Under the pieces are notes generated by a model. That model did no database searches, was not told the origin of the DNA, and saw only the letters and a list, made by a program, of their open reading frames with translations. Both the position numbers and the translations under genes were made by a program. This document shows positions 15,457 to 30,900 of a stretch of DNA of 32,452 nt, piece after piece (position 1 is the first letter of the stretch; each line of letters starts with the position of its first letter). The stretch comes from a virus (Duplodnaviria; Heunggongvirae; Uroviricota; Caudoviricetes), in IMG/VR virus record IMGVR_UViG_2568526722_000001, one strand, 5' to 3'.

Positions 15457-15539
15457 CTGGTAAAGTTCATGCGCTTGGTTCGCCTCGCGATACAGCTTTG
15501 CGAAGCATACCGGAATTGAAGCAGTTTATGCGTAAAAAA
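15457..15539 (-). promoter_or_regulatory. Candidate late promoter (pR'-like) and Q-utilisation region
   Basis: Positional inference only: the interval between the Q stop and the tR'-like terminator. The minus strand contains TTGATT, then 17 nt, then TTCAAT as a weak -35/-10 candidate. Confidence 0.3.
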
Positions 15540-16082
15540 TCAAGCTATTTTTTGAGCAAATGATTCTCGCATGGGAATATATAGGGCATACTCAGCAACA
15601 GCCAACCAATTAGCAATTCGCTTTTCGCATGTGCTAAAACACCACTCAGGATGTGCATCATTTAGCAATTCAGCCATTTTGCGCTTAGTCATCCCCCGTC
15701 CTTCATACCGTTGCCGGAGGACACTAATCAATCCAGGATGCTCTGCCAGCACCTCACTTATGACTCTATCAATACATAACGCCTCTGCATCAGTACAATG
15801 CGCCAGCCAGGTCTTTTGCTTGCCATTGATCATCTCTCGCAAAAACGCTTCCAGCTCAGGTTTCTCTATTCCCGCTTTTTTCATCCTGCGCAGGGCTTCA
15901 TTGACGGCTGTTTTCGTCAATTTTTTGGATGCCAGCAACTGGTTAAACATATTTCCCGTCTTACCGCCGCCAATATACGACCAGCGCCCCCACATGCGCA
16001 GTTTTCCCTGAATCCAGACACTTTCCAGCGTGGTGAGACGAAGGTGTTCCCCGCTTTTGCCTGTATTTGTTGGGTAAATCAT
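15540..16082 (-). CDS. Late-gene antiterminator Q
   Basis: The protein (MIYPTNTGKSGEHLRLTTLESVWIQGKLRMWGRWSYIGGGKTG...) resembles lambdoid Q antiterminators. It lies upstream of the lysis genes. The ATG at 16082 overlaps the upstream stop (ATGA) and has GAAGG at -6. Confidence 0.75.
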   Translation of the reverse strand: MIYPTNTGKSGEHLRLTTLESVWIQGKLRMWGRWSYIGGGKTGNMFNQLLASKKLTKTAVNEALRRMKKAGIEKPELEAFLREMINGKQKTWLAHCTDAEALCIDRVISEVLAEHPGLISVLRQRYEGRGMTKRKMAELLNDAHPEWCFSTCEKRIANWLAVAEYALYIPMRESFAQKIA

Positions 16083-16369
16083 AAATAACCTTCCTTTCTC
16101 CAGATTTCTTGTGTGCGAAAAACACCTTCTGCATGCATCAGGCGTAATTCTTCTTTGGTGTAATCGCTGGTTTTTACCCGCCCGTCGATTAAATCGTGGC
16201 ATGAGCTACAGGCAATCGCTGCCTGCATATCGTGTGGTTTTGTCACTGTTCCGCACGTCCCCGCCAGCCTGTAATGCGCCAGCACAGATGTTTCGGGATT
16301 GTGATTGCAGTAGCCAGGAATTCTGACGGTGCACATCTGCCCCCGCGCCGCTTTACGTAAATCCACCAT
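16079..16369 (-). CDS. YbcO-like protein (DUF1364; putative nuclease of the nin region)
   Basis: 96 aa: MVDLRKAARGQMCTVRIPGYCNHNPETSVLAHYRLAGTCGTVTKPHDMQAAIACSSCHDLIDGR... This has the same length and cysteine pattern as DLP12 YbcO. Confidence 0.7.
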   Translation of the reverse strand: MVDLRKAARGQMCTVRIPGYCNHNPETSVLAHYRLAGTCGTVTKPHDMQAAIACSSCHDLIDGRVKTSDYTKEELRLMHAEGVFRTQEIWRKEGYL

Positions 16370-16968
16370 TACGCAAACTCCAGCAGCTGCGCGGCCACAT
16401 TTTCGACTTGTTCCGGAGAGGAAAATTTACGGAACAGAATCCAGTTCCACAGCACATTCAGAACAGATTTATAAACCTGCTGAAACTCGGTTTCGTCCAT
16501 ATTCGCAAAAGCGATAGATTTTGCCCGACGCCCGCGGCTACCGTCCGGATAAAAATGTTCGGTGTAAAATCCAGCCTGAATGGTTACCCACTCGCGAAAA
16601 GCCTCAAACGACTTTAGCAATGCCGTATCCCGGGTTCTGCGTGTCGCAACTGTATTCAGATATTGCTCTGCGGCATCACTCAGGGCTGGCGTGTGTTCCC
16701 GACCAACTGATTCGCACAGGTAATCAACGAAACCAGACAGCAGTTCTCGTTCGCGAGGCGTGATCGCCCCACCGACCGGAGTCCAGTAATCGAATCCCAG
16801 TTGCAGGAGTTTGAAAAAACGCTTGTGGAATGCGTAGTTACGCACACGCTTAAAGTCTGCGTGTATCCACTCGCCTATTTTGATTTGATGCAGAAAATCA
16901 CAACTCTCCGGCGTCGCCGGGAGAAGTAATCCGGAAGAGGTTTGTTTGACCAGTTGTATATGCGCCAT
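16369..16968 (-). CDS. nin-region protein (DUF1367-like)
   Basis: 199-aa ORF with a confirmed ATG, immediately upstream of the YbcO-like gene with a TAA/ATG junction. The family assignment is from memory of the typical DUF1367-DUF1364 gene pair. Confidence 0.5.
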   Translation of the reverse strand: MAHIQLVKQTSSGLLLPATPESCDFLHQIKIGEWIHADFKRVRNYAFHKRFFKLLQLGFDYWTPVGGAITPRERELLSGFVDYLCESVGREHTPALSDAAEQYLNTVATRRTRDTALLKSFEAFREWVTIQAGFYTEHFYPDGSRGRRAKSIAFANMDETEFQQVYKSVLNVLWNWILFRKFSSPEQVENVAAQLLEFA

Positions 16969-17240
16969 TTCTTAATCTCTCGATGGCGCAGCGCAGCAGA
17001 TGCCAGTTGTTCAGGCTGACGTATGAAGTATAAATAAACTGGCTCCAGTGTAAAGCCCCACCTTAATGGAATAAAAACCAAACAACAGATTGCTGGGATA
17101 CAAACAACGCTTATTATTAAAAGCGGTTAAACAAATTAAATTTTAATGTTATGCAAATCTGCCAGATCACCATAATATCTCATTTAAAAACCGCTGAAAT
17201 AACAACCCTATTAGGGTTAATCATATTAAGGTGAGTAAAT

Positions 17241-17327
17241 ATGGAAAACAACAAATCTGCACATTACGTTCCTTTTTTATCTGTAATACTTTTTGTTTTA
17301 TGCTGTGCGTGGGCATTATTTTTATAA
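17241..17327 (+). CDS. Candidate small hydrophobic peptide of 28 aa
   Basis: ATG preceded by AAGGTGAG at -7. The product MENNKSAHYVPFLSVILFVLCCAWALFL would be a single transmembrane helix. It converges on the hok-like gene. Confidence 0.25.
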   Translation: MENNKSAHYVPFLSVILFVLCCAWALFL

Positions 17328-17433
17328 AAATATTCACAGATAAAATATACCCGCCAAAGTTGGTTAAGTGCGGGTGCGTTGAGGATGCCTGACTCATCAG
17401 AGGTGGCGAGGGATTTCTCCCTCGCCTGGTCTC

Positions 17434-17586
17434 TCACTCCTCAGGTTCGTAAGCTGTGAAGACAGCGACCTCCGTCTGACCGGTTCGGATTTGTACCTCG
17501 CAGAAGTCTTTCCTTGTTACCAGTGCCATCACAACGACGGTAATACAGATGACAATCAGGGCGATTAACATCGTCTTTTGCTGCAT
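17434..17586 (-). CDS. hok: Hok/Gef-family type I toxin
   Basis: The 50-aa product MQQKTMLIALIVICITVVVMALVTRKDFCEVQIRTGQTEVAVFTAYEPEE is highly similar to HokC(Gef) and HokD(RelF) as I remember them. A perfect 8-bp stem hairpin (ggcgaggg / ccctcgcc) follows the stop at about 17405-17427. Confidence 0.8.
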   Translation of the reverse strand: MQQKTMLIALIVICITVVVMALVTRKDFCEVQIRTGQTEVAVFTAYEPEE

Positions 17587-17600
17587 CACAGCCTACTTAC

Positions 17601-17635
17601 CCTTACCTTTCGTTCAAGCGGTAAGGTCACTTTTT
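17601..17635 (+). ncRNA. Candidate Sok-like antisense RNA 3' end (terminator hairpin plus T-tract) next to the hok start
   Basis: Plus-strand inverted repeat ccttacc (12 nt) ggtaagg followed by tcactttttctg, 15 nt beyond the hok start codon. Position and orientation fit an antisense RNA terminator. The 5' end and promoter are not identified. Confidence 0.3.
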
Positions 17636-17734
17636 CTGTTGTGTGCTAACCAACAAACCTCTTTTATCTGCATTAAAAATCGTTATCATGTCATCCTCAA
17701 CCTGTTAATAGCCTATTATGGACTTTAGTAAACA

Positions 17735-19564
17735 ATGAGCACTTCCGCATACAAGAGCAAAATTCGAACACTCCAGTGCGCGTTAAAAAACGGTGAATTT
17801 GAACCATTCATACAACATATCCGTTTTCCATACTTTAAAAATATAGAGCAGAATGCAAGGATCGATTTTCAGTTCCCTATAACGGCTTTAGTAGGAAAAA
17901 ATGGAACTAATAAAAGTTCTGTTATCAAAGCGCTATTTGGTTGCCCACATGGTAAAAATATAACTCGTTATTGGTTCACAACTGAAACAGATGAGTTTCC
18001 TGACCTAAAACTTGCTGATGGCAGTTCTCTTAAACCTAGATATATATATGGATATAAAAATGCTGATGGCCGTTTAGTTGAAATACTCCAAGCACGTATC
18101 AATGCTACCAAGAAAACAATCGATTATTGGGAAACAAGTCGACCATCTGTTGGTGATAACATGGAGAGTATTTCGGATGATCTGGGTGCTAATAGTAATG
18201 CAACCAGATGGAAAAAAATCAAGAAGGGATTGGTTTTCCTAGATTTCAGATCGGAAATAAGTGCATTTGATAGATGTATGTATCACTCTGATTTTAAATT
18301 AAGAAAGAAGAAGAGTGGTGTATTAATTACAAAGCAAGACTATATCAGAAGCAAATCTAAATATATAAAGAAAGCTTTTGATGAAAAGCTAAGTAATTTA
18401 AGACTCTGGGGGGCGGAAACCATTGTTAAAAATATAACCTTGGCGCCAGAACTAGTTGAGCACGTCTCATTTATATTAGGGAAAAAATATAAAGTCATTA
18501 AATTTCTTGAGCATCGGTTATTTGGAACCAGAGGAGGAACCGCTTTACTTTCAACTGATAAGTTGAACTATACAGAAGCGTTTGCTGGAAGTGGTGAATT
18601 TGCAATAGTTTCACTAATACTCAATATTTATTCGGCCAAACCTAATTCATTAATTCTTCTTGACGAACCAGAAGTTTCACTTCACCCTGGTGCACAAAAA
18701 AGGATGATGGATGTTCTGTACTCTATTGTTGAGCAGAAAAAACATCAAGTGGTAATATCAACCCATTCTCCTGTTATTGTGAACACTCTTCCCAAAGATG
18801 CCATTAAATTATTTGTTTTTGATGAAGAGAGTGAAACAGCTAAAATAGTTCAAAATATAGCACCGGATGAAGCTTTTATAGAGCTAGGGCATGATATTAA
18901 CAAGAAAACAATAATTGTAGAAGATAAATTAGCTAAAGCAATTATAGATAAAGCGATTAAAAATGATGAAAGATTAAGCTTATCATTTAGTGTAAGTTAT
19001 ATACCAGGTGGTTCGGAGACCATTTTAAGCAAGCATCTTCCCAGTTACGCTGTGGTAGAACGCAATGATATTTTGTTTTTACTTGATGGTGATAAAAACA
19101 AAAAAATAAAACCAGTAAGAATTAGTGAAATTGCTGATGCTGATTTAGTTAATACAATGTGCAAATATTATGGTTGCGAGTTAATTATCAATGCCAGTGG
19201 TAGTAATGGCAAAAAAAATGAACAAGAATCTAATAGACTCAAAAGGCAAGTGCTTGAGTATGCATTCAATAAAGTGCAGTATTTACCATTTGATACTCCC
19301 GAACAATTACTCATTGAAAAGGCAATTACGCCAAGTGAAAAAGAAATAATTGATTCACAGACCTGGAGTTCTAATGATCCAGAACTGTATAAGAATCAAA
19401 TAAGATTATTAGCGCAACACCTGTATGATAAAGAAGAAGTAAATGCAGAGGAAATTTTTTGCCTCCAACAAATGATGACCGCAAGACTTAAAAATGAATT
19501 GCCTGAATTTATAAAAATAAGAAAAATAATTACTCAGGCTCTTGACCGTGGTATCATTAGGTAG
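17735..19564 (+). CDS. ABC-type ATPase with a C-terminal TOPRIM-like domain (OLD-family / GajA-like putative nuclease)
   Basis: Walker A (LVGKNGTNKSS); a long insert; signature-like AFAGSGEF; Walker B (LILLDEPEVSLH); H-loop (VISTHSP). The C-terminal region has an invariant-Glu motif (TIIVEDKLAKAII) and a DxD motif (LFLLDGDKNKK) as in TOPRIM. 609 aa, in an AT-rich segment. Confidence 0.7.
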   Translation: MSTSAYKSKIRTLQCALKNGEFEPFIQHIRFPYFKNIEQNARIDFQFPITALVGKNGTNKSSVIKALFGCPHGKNITRYWFTTETDEFPDLKLADGSSLKPRYIYGYKNADGRLVEILQARINATKKTIDYWETSRPSVGDNMESISDDLGANSNATRWKKIKKGLVFLDFRSEISAFDRCMYHSDFKLRKKKSGVLITKQDYIRSKSKYIKKAFDEKLSNLRLWGAETIVKNITLAPELVEHVSFILGKKYKVIKFLEHRLFGTRGGTALLSTDKLNYTEAFAGSGEFAIVSLILNIYSAKPNSLILLDEPEVSLHPGAQKRMMDVLYSIVEQKKHQVVISTHSPVIVNTLPKDAIKLFVFDEESETAKIVQNIAPDEAFIELGHDINKKTIIVEDKLAKAIIDKAIKNDERLSLSFSVSYIPGGSETILSKHLPSYAVVERNDILFLLDGDKNKKIKPVRISEIADADLVNTMCKYYGCELIINASGSNGKKNEQESNRLKRQVLEYAFNKVQYLPFDTPEQLLIEKAITPSEKEIIDSQTWSSNDPELYKNQIRLLAQHLYDKEEVNAEEIFCLQQMMTARLKNELPEFIKIRKIITQALDRGIIR

Positions 19565-19587
19565 TGATTCTGGATGCAGAGGGAAAA

Positions 19588-20628
19588 ATGAAAAAAATCA
19601 AAGTGTTTGACTTCTTTTCCGGTTGTGGTGGAACCAGCCAAGGTTTCCATCAAGCTGGAATGGATATTGTTTTTGGCCTCGATTTCGACGTTGATGCAGC
19701 CAGTTCATTTCGTGCAAATTTCCCGCAGGCTGCTTTTATTAACTCGGACATTAGGTTAATCGACAACAATGCCATAAACAAGTTAGTAAAAAAACATCGT
19801 AATGATTACATTCTTTTTTCAGGATGTGCGCCTTGTCAACCGTACTCTAAGCAAAACTCAAATAAGAAAAATGATGATCCACGATTAGATCTATTAAAGG
19901 AATTCAGTCGCTTTGTAGAGCATTATATGCCTGATTTTATTTTTGTTGAAAACGTGCCAGGAATGCAAAAGTTTAACAAAAATGAAGGAACATTCATGAT
20001 GTTTTTAGAAATGCTTTCATCAAAGGGATATAGTGTAGATTATAAAGTAATGCCAGCTGCGTGGTACGGTGTACCACAGACGCGAGAAAGATTAGTGCTC
20101 ATTGCATCCAAGGATTTTTATGTCGCATTGCCTTCTCCTACACATGGGGTTGGAAATACTCCCTATTCAACAGTAAAGGACTGGATCGCTAATTTACCGA
20201 AGATAGAAGCAGGAGAAAAGCATAATAGTATTCCTGATCATGAAGCTGCACGCTTATCAGAGCTTAATTTACGTAGAATAAAATGCACTCCTGAAGGTGG
20301 AAGTCGAGAATTTTGGCCAGATGAATTGATTTTAGAATGCCATCGTAACCATAAAGGGCATACAGACGTATATGGACGTTTGAGTTGGGACAAACCAGCC
20401 AGCGGACTAACAACTCGTTGTATTAGCTATTCAAATGGACGTTTTGGACATCCAACACAAAATCGAGCAATATCGGTTCGTGAAGCAGCGTGTCTACAAA
20501 CATTTCCTTTGGATTATAAATTTATTGGTTCTTTGCAATCTCGGGCTCGTCAAATAGGAAATGCGGTCCCTCCGAAGATGTCTGAAACGATTGGAAAACA
20601 TTTGCTTAATATAATCAAAGCCTCCTAG
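19588..20628 (+). CDS. DNA (cytosine-5)-methyltransferase
   Basis: Canonical C5-methyltransferase motifs in order: I (FDFFSGCGG), IV (GCAPCQPYS), VI (ENVPGM), VIII (PQTRERLVLIA), IX (RAISVREAACLQTFPLDY), X (QIGNAVPP). Starts 23 nt after the ATPase stop; the track ORF begins earlier at a GTG at 19564. Confidence 0.9.
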   Translation: MKKIKVFDFFSGCGGTSQGFHQAGMDIVFGLDFDVDAASSFRANFPQAAFINSDIRLIDNNAINKLVKKHRNDYILFSGCAPCQPYSKQNSNKKNDDPRLDLLKEFSRFVEHYMPDFIFVENVPGMQKFNKNEGTFMMFLEMLSSKGYSVDYKVMPAAWYGVPQTRERLVLIASKDFYVALPSPTHGVGNTPYSTVKDWIANLPKIEAGEKHNSIPDHEAARLSELNLRRIKCTPEGGSREFWPDELILECHRNHKGHTDVYGRLSWDKPASGLTTRCISYSNGRFGHPTQNRAISVREAACLQTFPLDYKFIGSLQSRARQIGNAVPPKMSETIGKHLLNIIKAS

Positions 20629-20644
20629 GAGGCTTTATTTTATT
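20617..20644 (+). terminator. Intrinsic terminator at the end of the ATPase-methyltransferase cassette
   Basis: Perfect inverted repeat aaagcctcc / ggaggcttt with the methyltransferase stop codon TAG in the loop, followed by attttattg. Confidence 0.6.
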
Positions 20645-20661
20645 GTTATCCCCCCTAGTAG

Positions 20662-21093
20662 TTAATCGTGCTCACCAGACAACCTCCTGAAATTACTCTG
20701 GTAAAATGCCAGTACACGCTGCATAACTTCGCTTTTCCGGCACTCGCGACAGATTATATTCAGGCGCCTGTCGTAGCGGCGTATTTCTCCGTCTGGTAAT
20801 GACCAGATAAGGTCAGGATCAACCACAACCGTTTTTTTCACCTTTGCCCTGGATAGTTTTTTGCGGGCGTTTTGCCAGTCCTTACGAGCCTGCTCAGACG
20901 GGAATAATCCGTAGCCTGAATTGTAAACATCACCACTGGCGACCAGTTCTCTGGCGAGAGTGCTTATGTAATACCTTGATGCACCGGTTTTAGCCTCCAG
21001 AGCCCGTAACGTCTCGCGACCGCTCAGACGTACAAGTTCAACAACCTGCCCTTTAATTTTTTCCCGCTCTTCTGGTGTAAATACTTTTGCCAT
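20662..21093 (-). CDS. Hypothetical prophage protein of about 143 aa
   Basis: The ATG at 21093 has a GGAGG Shine-Dalgarno at -5 (MAKVFTPEEREK...). The C-terminal half is basic. No confident family assignment. Confidence 0.5.
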   Translation of the reverse strand: MAKVFTPEEREKIKGQVVELVRLSGRETLRALEAKTGASRYYISTLARELVASGDVYNSGYGLFPSEQARKDWQNARKKLSRAKVKKTVVVDPDLIWSLPDGEIRRYDRRLNIICRECRKSEVMQRVLAFYQSNFRRLSGEHD

Positions 21094-21108
21094 ATGTGCC
21101 TCCGGCAA

Positions 21109-21870
21109 TCACTTTTCCGACACAATACGACTGGAGGAATCGAAAATCTGTCGAACAATATCCCGGTGCTTGTTCAGCTCCCGCAGCGCGGCGCAGACTC
21201 GCTCCCACTTCTGGACATGATTTTTCGCCCGACGCAGTTCACGGTTTGCCATATGCAGCGATGGTAAAATCAGGTTATCCGCTTGCGTTTCAGTAAACGA
21301 TGGCAACGACTGCACAATGTCCGCCACAGTTTCTGTTTTAATATCTTCCTGTGTTGCAGCTTCCTGTACTGGTAACGCAACACCGGCTAGCTGAGGAAAG
21401 GCTTTACCATCTGTTTCCGCTACCGATGCAGCTTTCGGCTCTGCTGGTAAATTACCGCCCGGCATGCAGTAACGAAATTTACCGTTCTGATTAACGCGAA
21501 TCAGACGAGCTTTGCTGATTGCCATTGCCAGCGTTGAAGCCACTTTGCGGGATGTGGTACCGAACAACGTAGCCAGTTCATCCGCAGTTAGTGGACCACG
21601 TTGTTCAATCGTCGCAGTTAAATCGCTCTCTGAAATTTTCGCGACTGTTGCCGTGGTAGTTTCTTCCGGCAGTTCTGCCGGCGCTGGCTGTTCCTGCTGA
21701 ACGTTGTTATCAGCCACACGCCAGGTGTACGCGCTTTTATCAACGAAACCAGCCTTTTTCAGTTCCCATAGTTCGTTCAGCACTTCTTCACGGCTGATAT
21801 CAAGTCGCGCAGCAAGTTCTATGGATGTGGCTTTTCCCATTGCTTTCAGTGCGTCAAAAACAGTCTCCAT
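21109..21870 (-). CDS. Prophage protein with an N-terminal winged-helix-like domain (probable intact form of K-12 Rac ydaW)
   Basis: [43 protein letters not shown]... looks like a wHTH. It lies immediately downstream of the DnaC-like gene, as ydaW does in Rac. An alternative start at 21921 exists. Confidence 0.5.
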
Positions 21871-30512: not shown

Positions 30513-30719
30513 ATGACAAAAACTTTGAGATATGACGATGTTAAACCATGTCCGTTTTGTGGTTGTCCATCAGTAACGGTGAAAGACATTTCAGGATATT
30601 ACCGGGCAAAATGCAACGGATGCGAATCCCGAACTGGCTATGGTGGAAGTGAAAAAGAAGCGCTCGAAAGATGGAATAAACGAACCACTGAAAATATTAA
30701 TGGAGGCGTTCATGTATAA
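30513..30719 (+). CDS. ralR: RalR (Lar) restriction-alleviation protein / type I toxin
   Basis: ...RYDDVKPCPFCGCPSVTVKDISGYYRAKCNGCESRTGYGGSEKEALERWNKRTT... The 64-aa core matches K-12 RalR. The start may instead be the TTG at 30525. Confidence 0.7.
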   Translation: MTKTLRYDDVKPCPFCGCPSVTVKDISGYYRAKCNGCESRTGYGGSEKEALERWNKRTTENINGGVHV

Positions 30720-30900
30720 AATTACCGCTACAATTGAAAAGGAAGGTGGCACTCCTACTAACTGGACAAGATATTCAAAATCTAAACTAACGAAATCAGA
30801 ATGCGAAAAAATGCTCTCAGGTAAAAAAGAAGCAGGCGTTTCCAGAGAGCAGAAAGTAAAACTGATAAATTTTAATTGCGAGAAACTTCAGTCCTCGTGA
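30712..30900 (+). CDS. ydaC: YdaC-like small protein
   Basis: MYKITATIEKEGGTPTNWTRYSKSKLTKSECEKMLSGKKEAGVSREQKVKLINFNCEKLQSS, with GGAGG upstream of the ATG. It overlaps the ralR stop. Confidence 0.6.
   Translation: MYKITATIEKEGGTPTNWTRYSKSKLTKSECEKMLSGKKEAGVSREQKVKLINFNCEKLQSS

Follow-up and report, generated by a model that had tools for sequence, protein, structure and literature searches.

Whether a hok gene that lies immediately beside an ATPase-methyltransferase pair in a prophage still belongs to a working type I toxin-antitoxin module is the question raised by this locus. It was addressed here by computational analysis of the window, the whole stretch of 32,452 nucleotides in IMG/VR record IMGVR_UViG_2568526722_000001. 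We consider it likely that the gene is an orphan hokD-type toxin gene, truncated at its 5' side and no longer part of a hok/mok/sok module, and that it is most likely silent in the lysogen.

The toxin gene in its prophage

The window is a Rac-like lambdoid prophage, integrated beside ttcA in E. coli. The region of interest was found 100% identical in ATCC 8739 and about 26 further complete genomes. Its genes are arranged as follows.

early-right genes, minus strand: cro-like, then ydaT, ydaV, DUF1627 and Ren-like/DUF977
20662-21108, minus strand: the Ren-like/DUF977 gene
17630..20658, plus strand: replacement cargo, consisting of the cassette-side upstream region, the ATPase gene, the methyltransferase gene and a palindromic bidirectional terminator (20616-20637)
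to 20628, plus strand: Dcm-type cytosine methyltransferase gene, within the gap between the Ren-like gene and hok, on the strand opposite to the early-right genes
17735-19564, plus strand: ATPase gene, divergent from hok
after the gap, minus strand: hok (17434-17589), the NinB-like/DUF1367 gene, DUF1364 and a Q-type antiterminator gene
17434..17589, minus strand: hok ORF of the hokD type, 51 codons from its GTG; an in-frame ATG at 17586 gives 50 aa
16369-16968, minus strand: the NinB-like/DUF1367 gene

The hok gene and the early-right genes are read in the same direction, from the minus strand. Between it and these genes lie the palindrome, which is terminator-like on both strands, and 2.9 kb of antisense cassette. 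A divergent ATPase gene about 150 bp from the toxin gene, as reported by an earlier sequence-only reading, was confirmed, the gap being 145 bp. The same reading suggested a short control region shared by the two promoters. Consensus scans for promoters and terminators over 16900-17800 returned nothing in this gap on either strand, and a relaxed promoter scan gave weak sites only, with 7-8 of 12 matches on both strands. Real Sok promoters are likewise far from consensus, and promoter scans cannot exclude transcription. The position of the canonical hok promoter is deleted in the window.

The product had been described as a 50-aa protein close to HokC and HokD, and this was borne out. Pfam HOK_GEF (PF01848; cut-off 22 bits) matched over profile positions 2-42 of 42 with 76.7 bits (E 1e-21), and PHROG 251, 'MokW-like host killing', with 1.4e-29; RefSeq labels the ORF 'Hok/Gef family protein' (WP_032158962). 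Identity to HokD was 86%, with seven amino-acid changes. The NCBIfam Hok subfamily model was uninformative, since the window protein scored 43.4 against a cut-off of 73 and canonical HokD, at 48.5, fell below it as well. A PADLOC run on Hok gave no model. Hok/Gef proteins are about 50 aa long, with an N-terminal basic residue, one transmembrane helix, a conserved cysteine in the helix and in the periplasmic tail, and a C-terminal cysteine/editable tyrosine (UACG) (PMC12214031). All of these features are found in the window protein, which keeps K5, a hydrophobic stretch at 7-24, R26/K27, C15, C30 and Y47. A G follows the UAC codon of Y47, and a site in the UACG context is edited by TadA in hokD (PMC12214031). 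The peptide, if made, would act like HokD/RelF as an inner-membrane toxin.

The ORF was intact in all 8 sequence variants, which could reflect function or youth. Among the eight DNA variants of these Sok-less copies there were six protein variants, with changes that include I9T, I12S and V18F in the transmembrane helix. The complete loci of K-12, O157, APEC and strain 98192, on the other hand, encode one common HokD protein, from which the Rac 442/2 copy differs by I19V only. Small as these numbers are, the sequences suggest relaxed constraint on the Sok-less copies.

The hairpin beside the start codon and the missing antitoxin module

The elements around the hok ORF on which the further argument relies are these.

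17586..17596, minus strand: start-codon region GUAGGCUGUGA, which includes the GUG start
17590..17629, minus strand: leader remnant and translation-initiation region of about 38 nt, with the Shine-Dalgarno sequence AAGGGT at 17599-17604 (AAGGAG in hokD loci)
17601..17626, minus strand: predicted hok-sense hairpin of 7 bp, CCUUACC/GGUAAGG, which buries the Shine-Dalgarno core
17601-17607 (CCTTACC) and 17620-17626 (GGTAAGG), plus strand: arms of the plus-strand hairpin, with a 12-nt loop and a 4-nt spacer, then TTTTT at 17631-17635
17631..17635, plus strand: the T5 run, beyond the homology break and 4 nt past the stem, in AT-rich cassette-side DNA
17627..17630: hok/cassette junction, from alignments and a step in GC content
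17405..17426, minus strand: conserved stem-loop in the 3' UTR
17369..17384, minus strand: conserved fbi-like box CCUCAACGCACCCGCA
17340..17375, minus strand: altered 3' terminator, in which the original 5' arm CCCGC is CCAAC

The sequence-only reading had pointed to a plus-strand hairpin with a T-tract, 15 nt past the start codon, as the place where a Sok-like antisense RNA would terminate. The structure is present as described and begins 12-15 nt beyond the hok start (15 nt beyond the ATG). Termination of a Sok-like RNA at this site was not borne out. The hairpin folds at −8.8 kcal/mol (z −1.63), 17 of 200 shuffled sequences folded at least as well, and the terminator scan of 16900-17800 did not call it. 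For sokC and sokB we obtained −21.6 and −22.2 kcal/mol (z −4.3 and −3.7), with a U-run adjacent to the stem. The annotated antisense genes of K-12 lie upstream of the toxin start, sokC at 49-107 nt from hokC on the opposite strand and sokB at 48-104 nt from hokB. The equivalent position in the window, about 17637-17696, is non-homologous DNA of 33% GC on the cassette side, and the −35/−10 elements of Sok would, by normal promoter geometry, map to about 17603-17631. Since annotated Sok RNAs lie 48-107 nt upstream, the hairpin sits at the ancestral Sok promoter and the hok Shine-Dalgarno region and not at a Sok terminator. Both of its arms align with conserved hok-leader sequence (CTTACC..., ...AAGG). 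The apparent plus-strand terminator is therefore explained as the reverse complement of a hok-sense Shine-Dalgarno hairpin that is homologous to the hok leader.

A non-canonical type I locus would also be conceivable, in which a Sok-like RNA begins within the 5' portion of hok (about 17560-17580, plus strand), ends at 17601-17635 and represses by pairing over the Shine-Dalgarno sequence and the start codon. Besides the hairpin and the T5 run, a promoter-like AATACA-18-TAACAT (7 of 12), which would yield a start at about 17578 and an RNA of about 58 nt, points in this direction, as does an 81-nt plus-strand stretch that folds better than shuffles (z −3.0). The position is wrong, however, because annotated Sok RNAs start 48-49 nt upstream of hok, and the terminator, with its short stem, wide loop and spacer, is a poor one. 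The promoter-like pair falls within coding sequence that K-12 hokD also has; next to hokD RefSeq lists no sokD, whereas it does annotate sokC and sokB. With the hairpin accounted for by homology and no Rfam match on either strand, we regard such an RNA as very unlikely.

The Rfam search deserves some detail. As matched here, RF01794 ('sok'), with a gathering score of 59, spans the 157-nt hok leader on the hok-sense strand, up to the hok AUG. Six complete loci, namely K-12 hokC and hokB and four hokD-type controls (an APEC strain, strain 98192, an O157 strain and phage Rac MN652886), scored 107-120 bits. No match was found in the window on either strand, at the gathering threshold over 32 kb or at E≤10 over the 651 nt of 17150-17800, nor on K-12 hokD/relF. 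The only gathering-level Rfam match in the whole window was RalA (30718-30896), and the E≤10 matches around hok were chance hits to miRNA, snoRNA and CRISPR models. BLAST with sokC, sokB and the O157 Sok region/leader over the window gave only chance matches of 11-12 nt elsewhere.

A mok equivalent was looked for as well. The mok start of complete loci is an ATG some 57 nt ahead of hok; mokC and the O157 and APEC loci have it in the hok frame, the Rac record in the −1 frame. No minus-strand ORF of at least 20 aa overlaps the 5' end of hok in the window, where the hok frame is closed by a TAG at 6 nt upstream and the −1 frame, which holds two TAA codons, by a TAA at 10 nt. Neither mok nor sok has a counterpart here, and the proposed type I toxin-antitoxin locus is not complete, with no RF01794 match at E≤10 and no mok-type ORF.

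The search for the RNA elements fbi, tac and ucb met with partial success: an fbi-like box is there, and tac and ucb are not. Apart from a single additional C, the box is complementary throughout to UGCGGGUGCUUGAGG, the tac sequence with which complete hokD-type leaders begin. This partner is missing from the window, and the tac motif GGGTGCTTGAGG, which opens complete leaders, was absent from the aligned upstream region. In the terminator, the 3' arm GCGGGU was predicted to pair with the fbi box instead, and the sequence AUAUUUUAU comes after it; hok-type homology ends on this side at about 17337-17349. In the R1 model, such a 3' stem-loop stabilises processed hok mRNA at its 3' end (PMC9841398). 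Altogether the locus has lost the hok promoter (about 170 nt upstream in complete loci), tac, ucb, the mok start, the Sok target and Sok.

The presence of a Hok ORF is not enough to constitute a type I toxin-antitoxin locus. Because antitoxin, mok and leader are missing here, the claims that the locus stabilises the inserted island or contributes to abortive infection have no basis. Post-segregational killing needs a labile antitoxin, and either this or phage exclusion without one is mechanistically implausible.

Replacement of the leader and its predicted consequences for expression

Where the module was lost can be located from comparison with its relatives. Across the 3' UTR and ORF, nucleotide identity to hokD loci, which 4571 of 5426 E. 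coli genomes possess, was about 91%. The match breaks off at 17598 in the window for the K-12 type and at 17612-17615 for the others, and the limit of strict BLAST homology was set at 17610. Multiple alignments showed residual collinear similarity (CTTACC...CGAAAGG.AAGG) up to about 17626 and random-level identity beyond. GC content was 49% in 17434-17629 as against 33% in 17630-17734, with 36% in the cassette. Comparison of 17590-17760 with the DNA upstream of distant homologues of the cassette showed no similarity, and so 17630-17734 is assigned to the cassette side by its GC content and because hok loci do not contain it. No direct or inverted repeats, as a sign of transposition or site-specific insertion, were found at the cassette boundaries.

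Phage Rac MN652886, with annotated hok and mok and an RF01794 leader match of 111 bits, is syntenic with the window from Q to irsA (15529-16968), at hok (17349-17610) and from lygF to ydaW (20659-21611). It follows from this synteny that window 17611-20658 replaces the leader/sok and five small genes of phage Rac. A full hok leader was found somewhere in 4260 of the 5426 complete E. coli genomes. An IMG/VR survey gave 113 usable phage-borne hokD copies, in 102 of which the leader is 150 nt or longer. The remaining 11 (about 10%) were 5'-truncated at no fewer than five distinct junctions: two of the window type, four of the relE type, two in another context that share the −14 break, one with a break at −71 and two with breaks inside the ORF. 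Cargo found upstream of hokD in other prophages comprised relBE, AbiH and various hypothetical genes.

Hok might also be a part of the cassette, as an effector or addiction module of the ATPase-methyltransferase system, and move with it. The two are 145 bp apart, and one identical junction, together with the GTG/TAG/TAA changes, is common to 32 of 5426 E. coli genomes, which are all those with the ATPase, and to 12 IMG/VR loci, which are the near-identical (at least 99%) ATPase loci crossing the junction. Homologous cassettes in Pantoea (L010) and on two viral contigs (L019 and L020), with 63-69% aa identity in the ATPase and 72-73% in the methyltransferase, nevertheless had no hok within flanks of about 3 kb (0.57 kb upstream in L020), and for this reason we assign hok to the prophage backbone and not to the cassette. 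The hok block is prophage-like in GC content, and syntenic hok genes are found in prophages without the cassette. The ORF behind the common junction is moreover mosaic, the hokD consensus returning after a few codons in some copies, so that these recombinant alleles share the junction-proximal end only. We take this explanation to be largely refuted already and extremely improbable. The adjacency of hok and cassette fits a by-product of a shared cargo slot. In a published survey, hok was enriched in prophages and not near defence systems (bioRxiv 10.1101/2025.08.07.668861).

The course of events was then probably the following. In related lambdoid and Rac-type prophages, a complete hok/mok/sok locus stands at the edge of a variable cargo slot that extends from the Ren-like gene to ninB. 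In the lineage of the window, an inverted pair of ATPase and cytosine methyltransferase genes has probably replaced all DNA more than about 38 nt upstream of the hok start, with the junction falling at what was probably the −10 element of the ancestral Sok promoter. The Hok ORF, a short leader, the 3' stem-loop, a partnerless fbi box and a degraded terminator are what is left. Transcription of hok would presumably depend entirely on antiterminated read-through from the early-right operon, with which it is co-oriented. The GUG start, the weakened Shine-Dalgarno sequence and two helices over the latter and the start codon are predicted to hinder translation. Because the gene has neither a promoter of its own nor an antitoxin, we infer that it is probably silent in the uninduced lysogen.

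The second of these helices was examined by predicted folding. GUAGGCUGUGA was predicted to pair without mismatch over 11 bp with UCACAGCUUAC (17449-17459, codons 43-47), and two lineage-specific substitutions, C>U and, in the start codon, A>G, create the perfect match. Compared with the hokD consensus, six nucleotides are substituted in the 32-nt initiation region. Predicted energies for opening positions −16 to +6 were as follows, for the window and for the same sequence with the consensus translation-initiation region.

5' end 17640 (51 nt leader): window 20.8, consensus 9.0 kcal/mol
5' end 17680: window 17.5, consensus 6.6 kcal/mol
5' ends 17734 and 17900: window 13.8, consensus 7.7 kcal/mol

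In silico, the six substitutions add 6-12 kcal/mol to the opening energy, an excess that depends on the assumed 5' end and on an assumed ancestral initiation region, in a test devised after the data had been seen. Random sets of six substitutions reached the observed value in 0 of 120 cases for 17640, 0 of 70 for 17680, 2 of 70 for 17734 and 0 of 40 for 17900. Natural complete loci had opening energies of 11-14.5, and the window value of 13.8, obtained with a leader of at least 145 nt, falls inside this range. These modelled values give a hint that the substitutions may fit selection for cis-silencing after the loss of Sok. An AGG 5 nt before the internal AUG could be a weak Shine-Dalgarno sequence.

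Two further readings ascribe a function to the gene. It might be a working orphan toxin, silent in the lysogen and made from the antiterminated early-right transcript after induction or infection, with host killing, lysis timing or abortive infection as outcome. Its orientation and the ORF intact in all variants agree with this, and K-12 relF/hokD is likewise transcribed from an upstream operon (PMC3598666). A 20-codon upstream ORF (17689-17627, with a GAGG Shine-Dalgarno sequence), the UGA of which abuts the hairpin, could unlock the Shine-Dalgarno hairpin as a substitute for mok. The palindrome and the antisense cassette intervene, however, and the start codon would remain in the predicted 11-bp helix whatever the upstream ORF does. 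An ORF of 20 codons is also expected by chance in AT-rich DNA, with 29 ORFs of at least 20 aa in 1.6 kb. The private polar changes in the transmembrane helix (I9T, I12S) suggest relaxed constraint, and the lack of enrichment of hok near defence systems speaks against this role as well. We judge it unlikely.

Still less probable, in our view, is a toxin locked in cis. Here the six substitutions in 32 nt, which yield the GUG start, the weakened Shine-Dalgarno sequence, a perfect 7-bp hairpin over the latter and the perfect 11-bp helix, would have closed translation after the loss of Sok and mok, and ribosomes ending at the 20-codon upstream ORF in antiterminated early-right transcription would open it, for use in host killing or abortive infection. 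If this model were true, an antitoxin-free, structure-gated Hok would stand beside a defence cassette. The helix partner in codons 43-47 includes the TadA-editable UACG.

Returning to the silent orphan gene as our preferred explanation, its overall significance is modest. In lambdoid prophages, recombination seems to have used the hok leader repeatedly as a junction, at the border of a variable cargo slot, and this is useful for delimiting cargo and defence slots. The substitutions that strengthen structure over the ribosome binding site in silico provide a small hint as to how orphan toxins are tolerated.

Comparison with known hok loci

Complete hokD-type loci, as in phage Rac MN652886, the O157 prophages and, as 'MokW'/gef, Stx phages, occupy the same syntenic position (Ren-like/lygF ... 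hok ... irsA/ninB-like) and have about 90% nucleotide identity to the window across ORF and 3' UTR. They possess a 157-nt leader (RF01794 107-120 bits), an annotated or open mok frame and tac, whereas the window is without all of these.

The hok/sok system of R1 (parB) provides the mechanistic framework (PMC9841398). Its protein belongs to the same family, with 34% identity, and the 3' stem-loop and an fbi-type element are recognisable in both. R1, however, has a promoter, tac/ucb, mok, a 64-nt Sok and post-segregational killing; the regulatory parts among these are missing from the window. Just upstream of the window's Shine-Dalgarno sequence, CTTACCGC presumably matches the R1 sequence.

The closest known case is hokD (relF) of the Qin prophage in K-12. 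The proteins are 86% identical, and the two genes have the same 3' UTR with stem-loop and fbi-like box. Both are without an Rfam sok/leader match, mok and a promoter of their own, both have had the 5' leader replaced by other cargo, and both lie in the nin-side region of a lambdoid prophage. They differ in the break point, which is at about −14 in K-12 hokD and at about −38 in the window, and in the neighbour: co-oriented relBE supplies a promoter to K-12 hokD, which is transcribed from it (PMC3598666), whereas the divergent ATPase-methylase pair does not do so for the window gene. The window allele further differs by its GTG start, weakened Shine-Dalgarno sequence, upstream stops and the seven amino-acid changes. 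For hokD, inactivation by rearrangement with loss of canonical toxin-antitoxin components has been described (PMC12214031, PMC7232551). The window locus has the make-up of this rearranged, Sok-less class, an intact hokD-like ORF and 3' UTR behind a replaced leader, and is, judged by its sequence, a new allele of that class, to which K-12 hokD belongs as well.

Truncation at the hok leader

Phage-borne hokD-type copies were taken from the IMG/VR loci L029-L148 (for example L123, L133, L148, L072 and L085). Truncation of the 5' side was observed in 11 of the 113 copies and occurred at no fewer than five distinct points: at -14, in two different upstream contexts, at about -38, at -71 and, in two copies, inside the reading frame. 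Judged from these sequences, the hok leader appears to be a recurrent recombination junction.

The frame of mok varied between close relatives. In K-12 mokC and in the complete hokD loci of O157 (L005) and APEC (L003), mok lies in frame with hok and forms an N-terminal extension from 57 nt upstream, whereas the annotation of phage Rac (MN652886, L026) places mok in the -1 frame, at 58 nt upstream.

RNA structure and a short frame before hok

An 11-bp helix was predicted in the hok mRNA, pairing the start-codon region (17586-17596) with codons 43-47 (17449-17459, minus strand). The UACG motif of hokD mRNA is a TadA editing site that converts Tyr to Cys (PMC12214031), and in the window it falls within the codon 43-47 side of this helix. 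Occlusion of the start codon and the editing site would thus be structurally linked in this hok allele.

A short reading frame precedes the gene:

17627-17689, minus strand: 20-codon ORF MITIFNADKRGLLVSTQQKK with a GAGG Shine-Dalgarno (SD) motif

The hok SD is buried by a hairpin, and the UGA stop of this ORF lies directly against that hairpin's 5' arm, a geometry that suits translational unlocking of hok. An ORF of 20 codons is also expected to occur by chance in AT-rich DNA. The frame was unbroken in all eight DNA variants that share the window's hok-cassette junction, with three non-synonymous changes and one synonymous change.

Other small elements of the window

Two further features belong here:

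17241-17327, plus strand: 28-codon ORF MENNKSAHYVPFLSVILFVLCCAWALFL, hydrophobic and preceded by a good SD (TAAGGTGAG)
30718-30896, minus strand: RalA antitoxin sRNA (Rfam RF02694, 218 bits)

The hydrophobic ORF is convergent with hok, carries no RefSeq annotation and had no match in Pfam, NCBIfam or PHROG. A 76%-identical copy without an adjoining hok (L027) retained its length and SD, as did those in L028 and L003; the changes among these copies were synonymous and conservative. The 465-nt spacer around it was found in 812 E. coli genomes. We regard the ORF product as a candidate small membrane protein conserved in lambdoid prophages.

RalA adjoins ralR, according to the ATCC 8739 annotation. 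RalA/ralR is a genuine type I toxin-antitoxin pair of the Rac prophage, located elsewhere in the window than hok.

The ATPase-methyltransferase cassette

17735-20628, plus strand: two-gene cassette, AAA_21/AAA_15 ATPase and Dcm-type cytosine methyltransferase
20616-20637: perfect palindromic sequence AAAGCCTCCTAGGAGGCTTT, immediately following the stop of the methyltransferase gene

The palindrome was called terminator-like on both strands and would therefore also face early-right transcription from the Ren-like gene. GC content was 36% in the cassette versus 45% in the window. The gene pair is rare in E. coli (32 of 5426 complete genomes) and is also kept in Pantoea and two IMG/VR contigs. 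No match to a named two-gene system was obtained in this analysis. The top PADLOC matches of the ATPase were HEC-04 (1.7e-34) and ATPase-Toprim_I-B (2.8e-26), those of the methyltransferase included MTase_II (1.4e-96) and DruM (4.8e-92), and the cassette looks like a restriction-modification-like or OLD-like defence pair.
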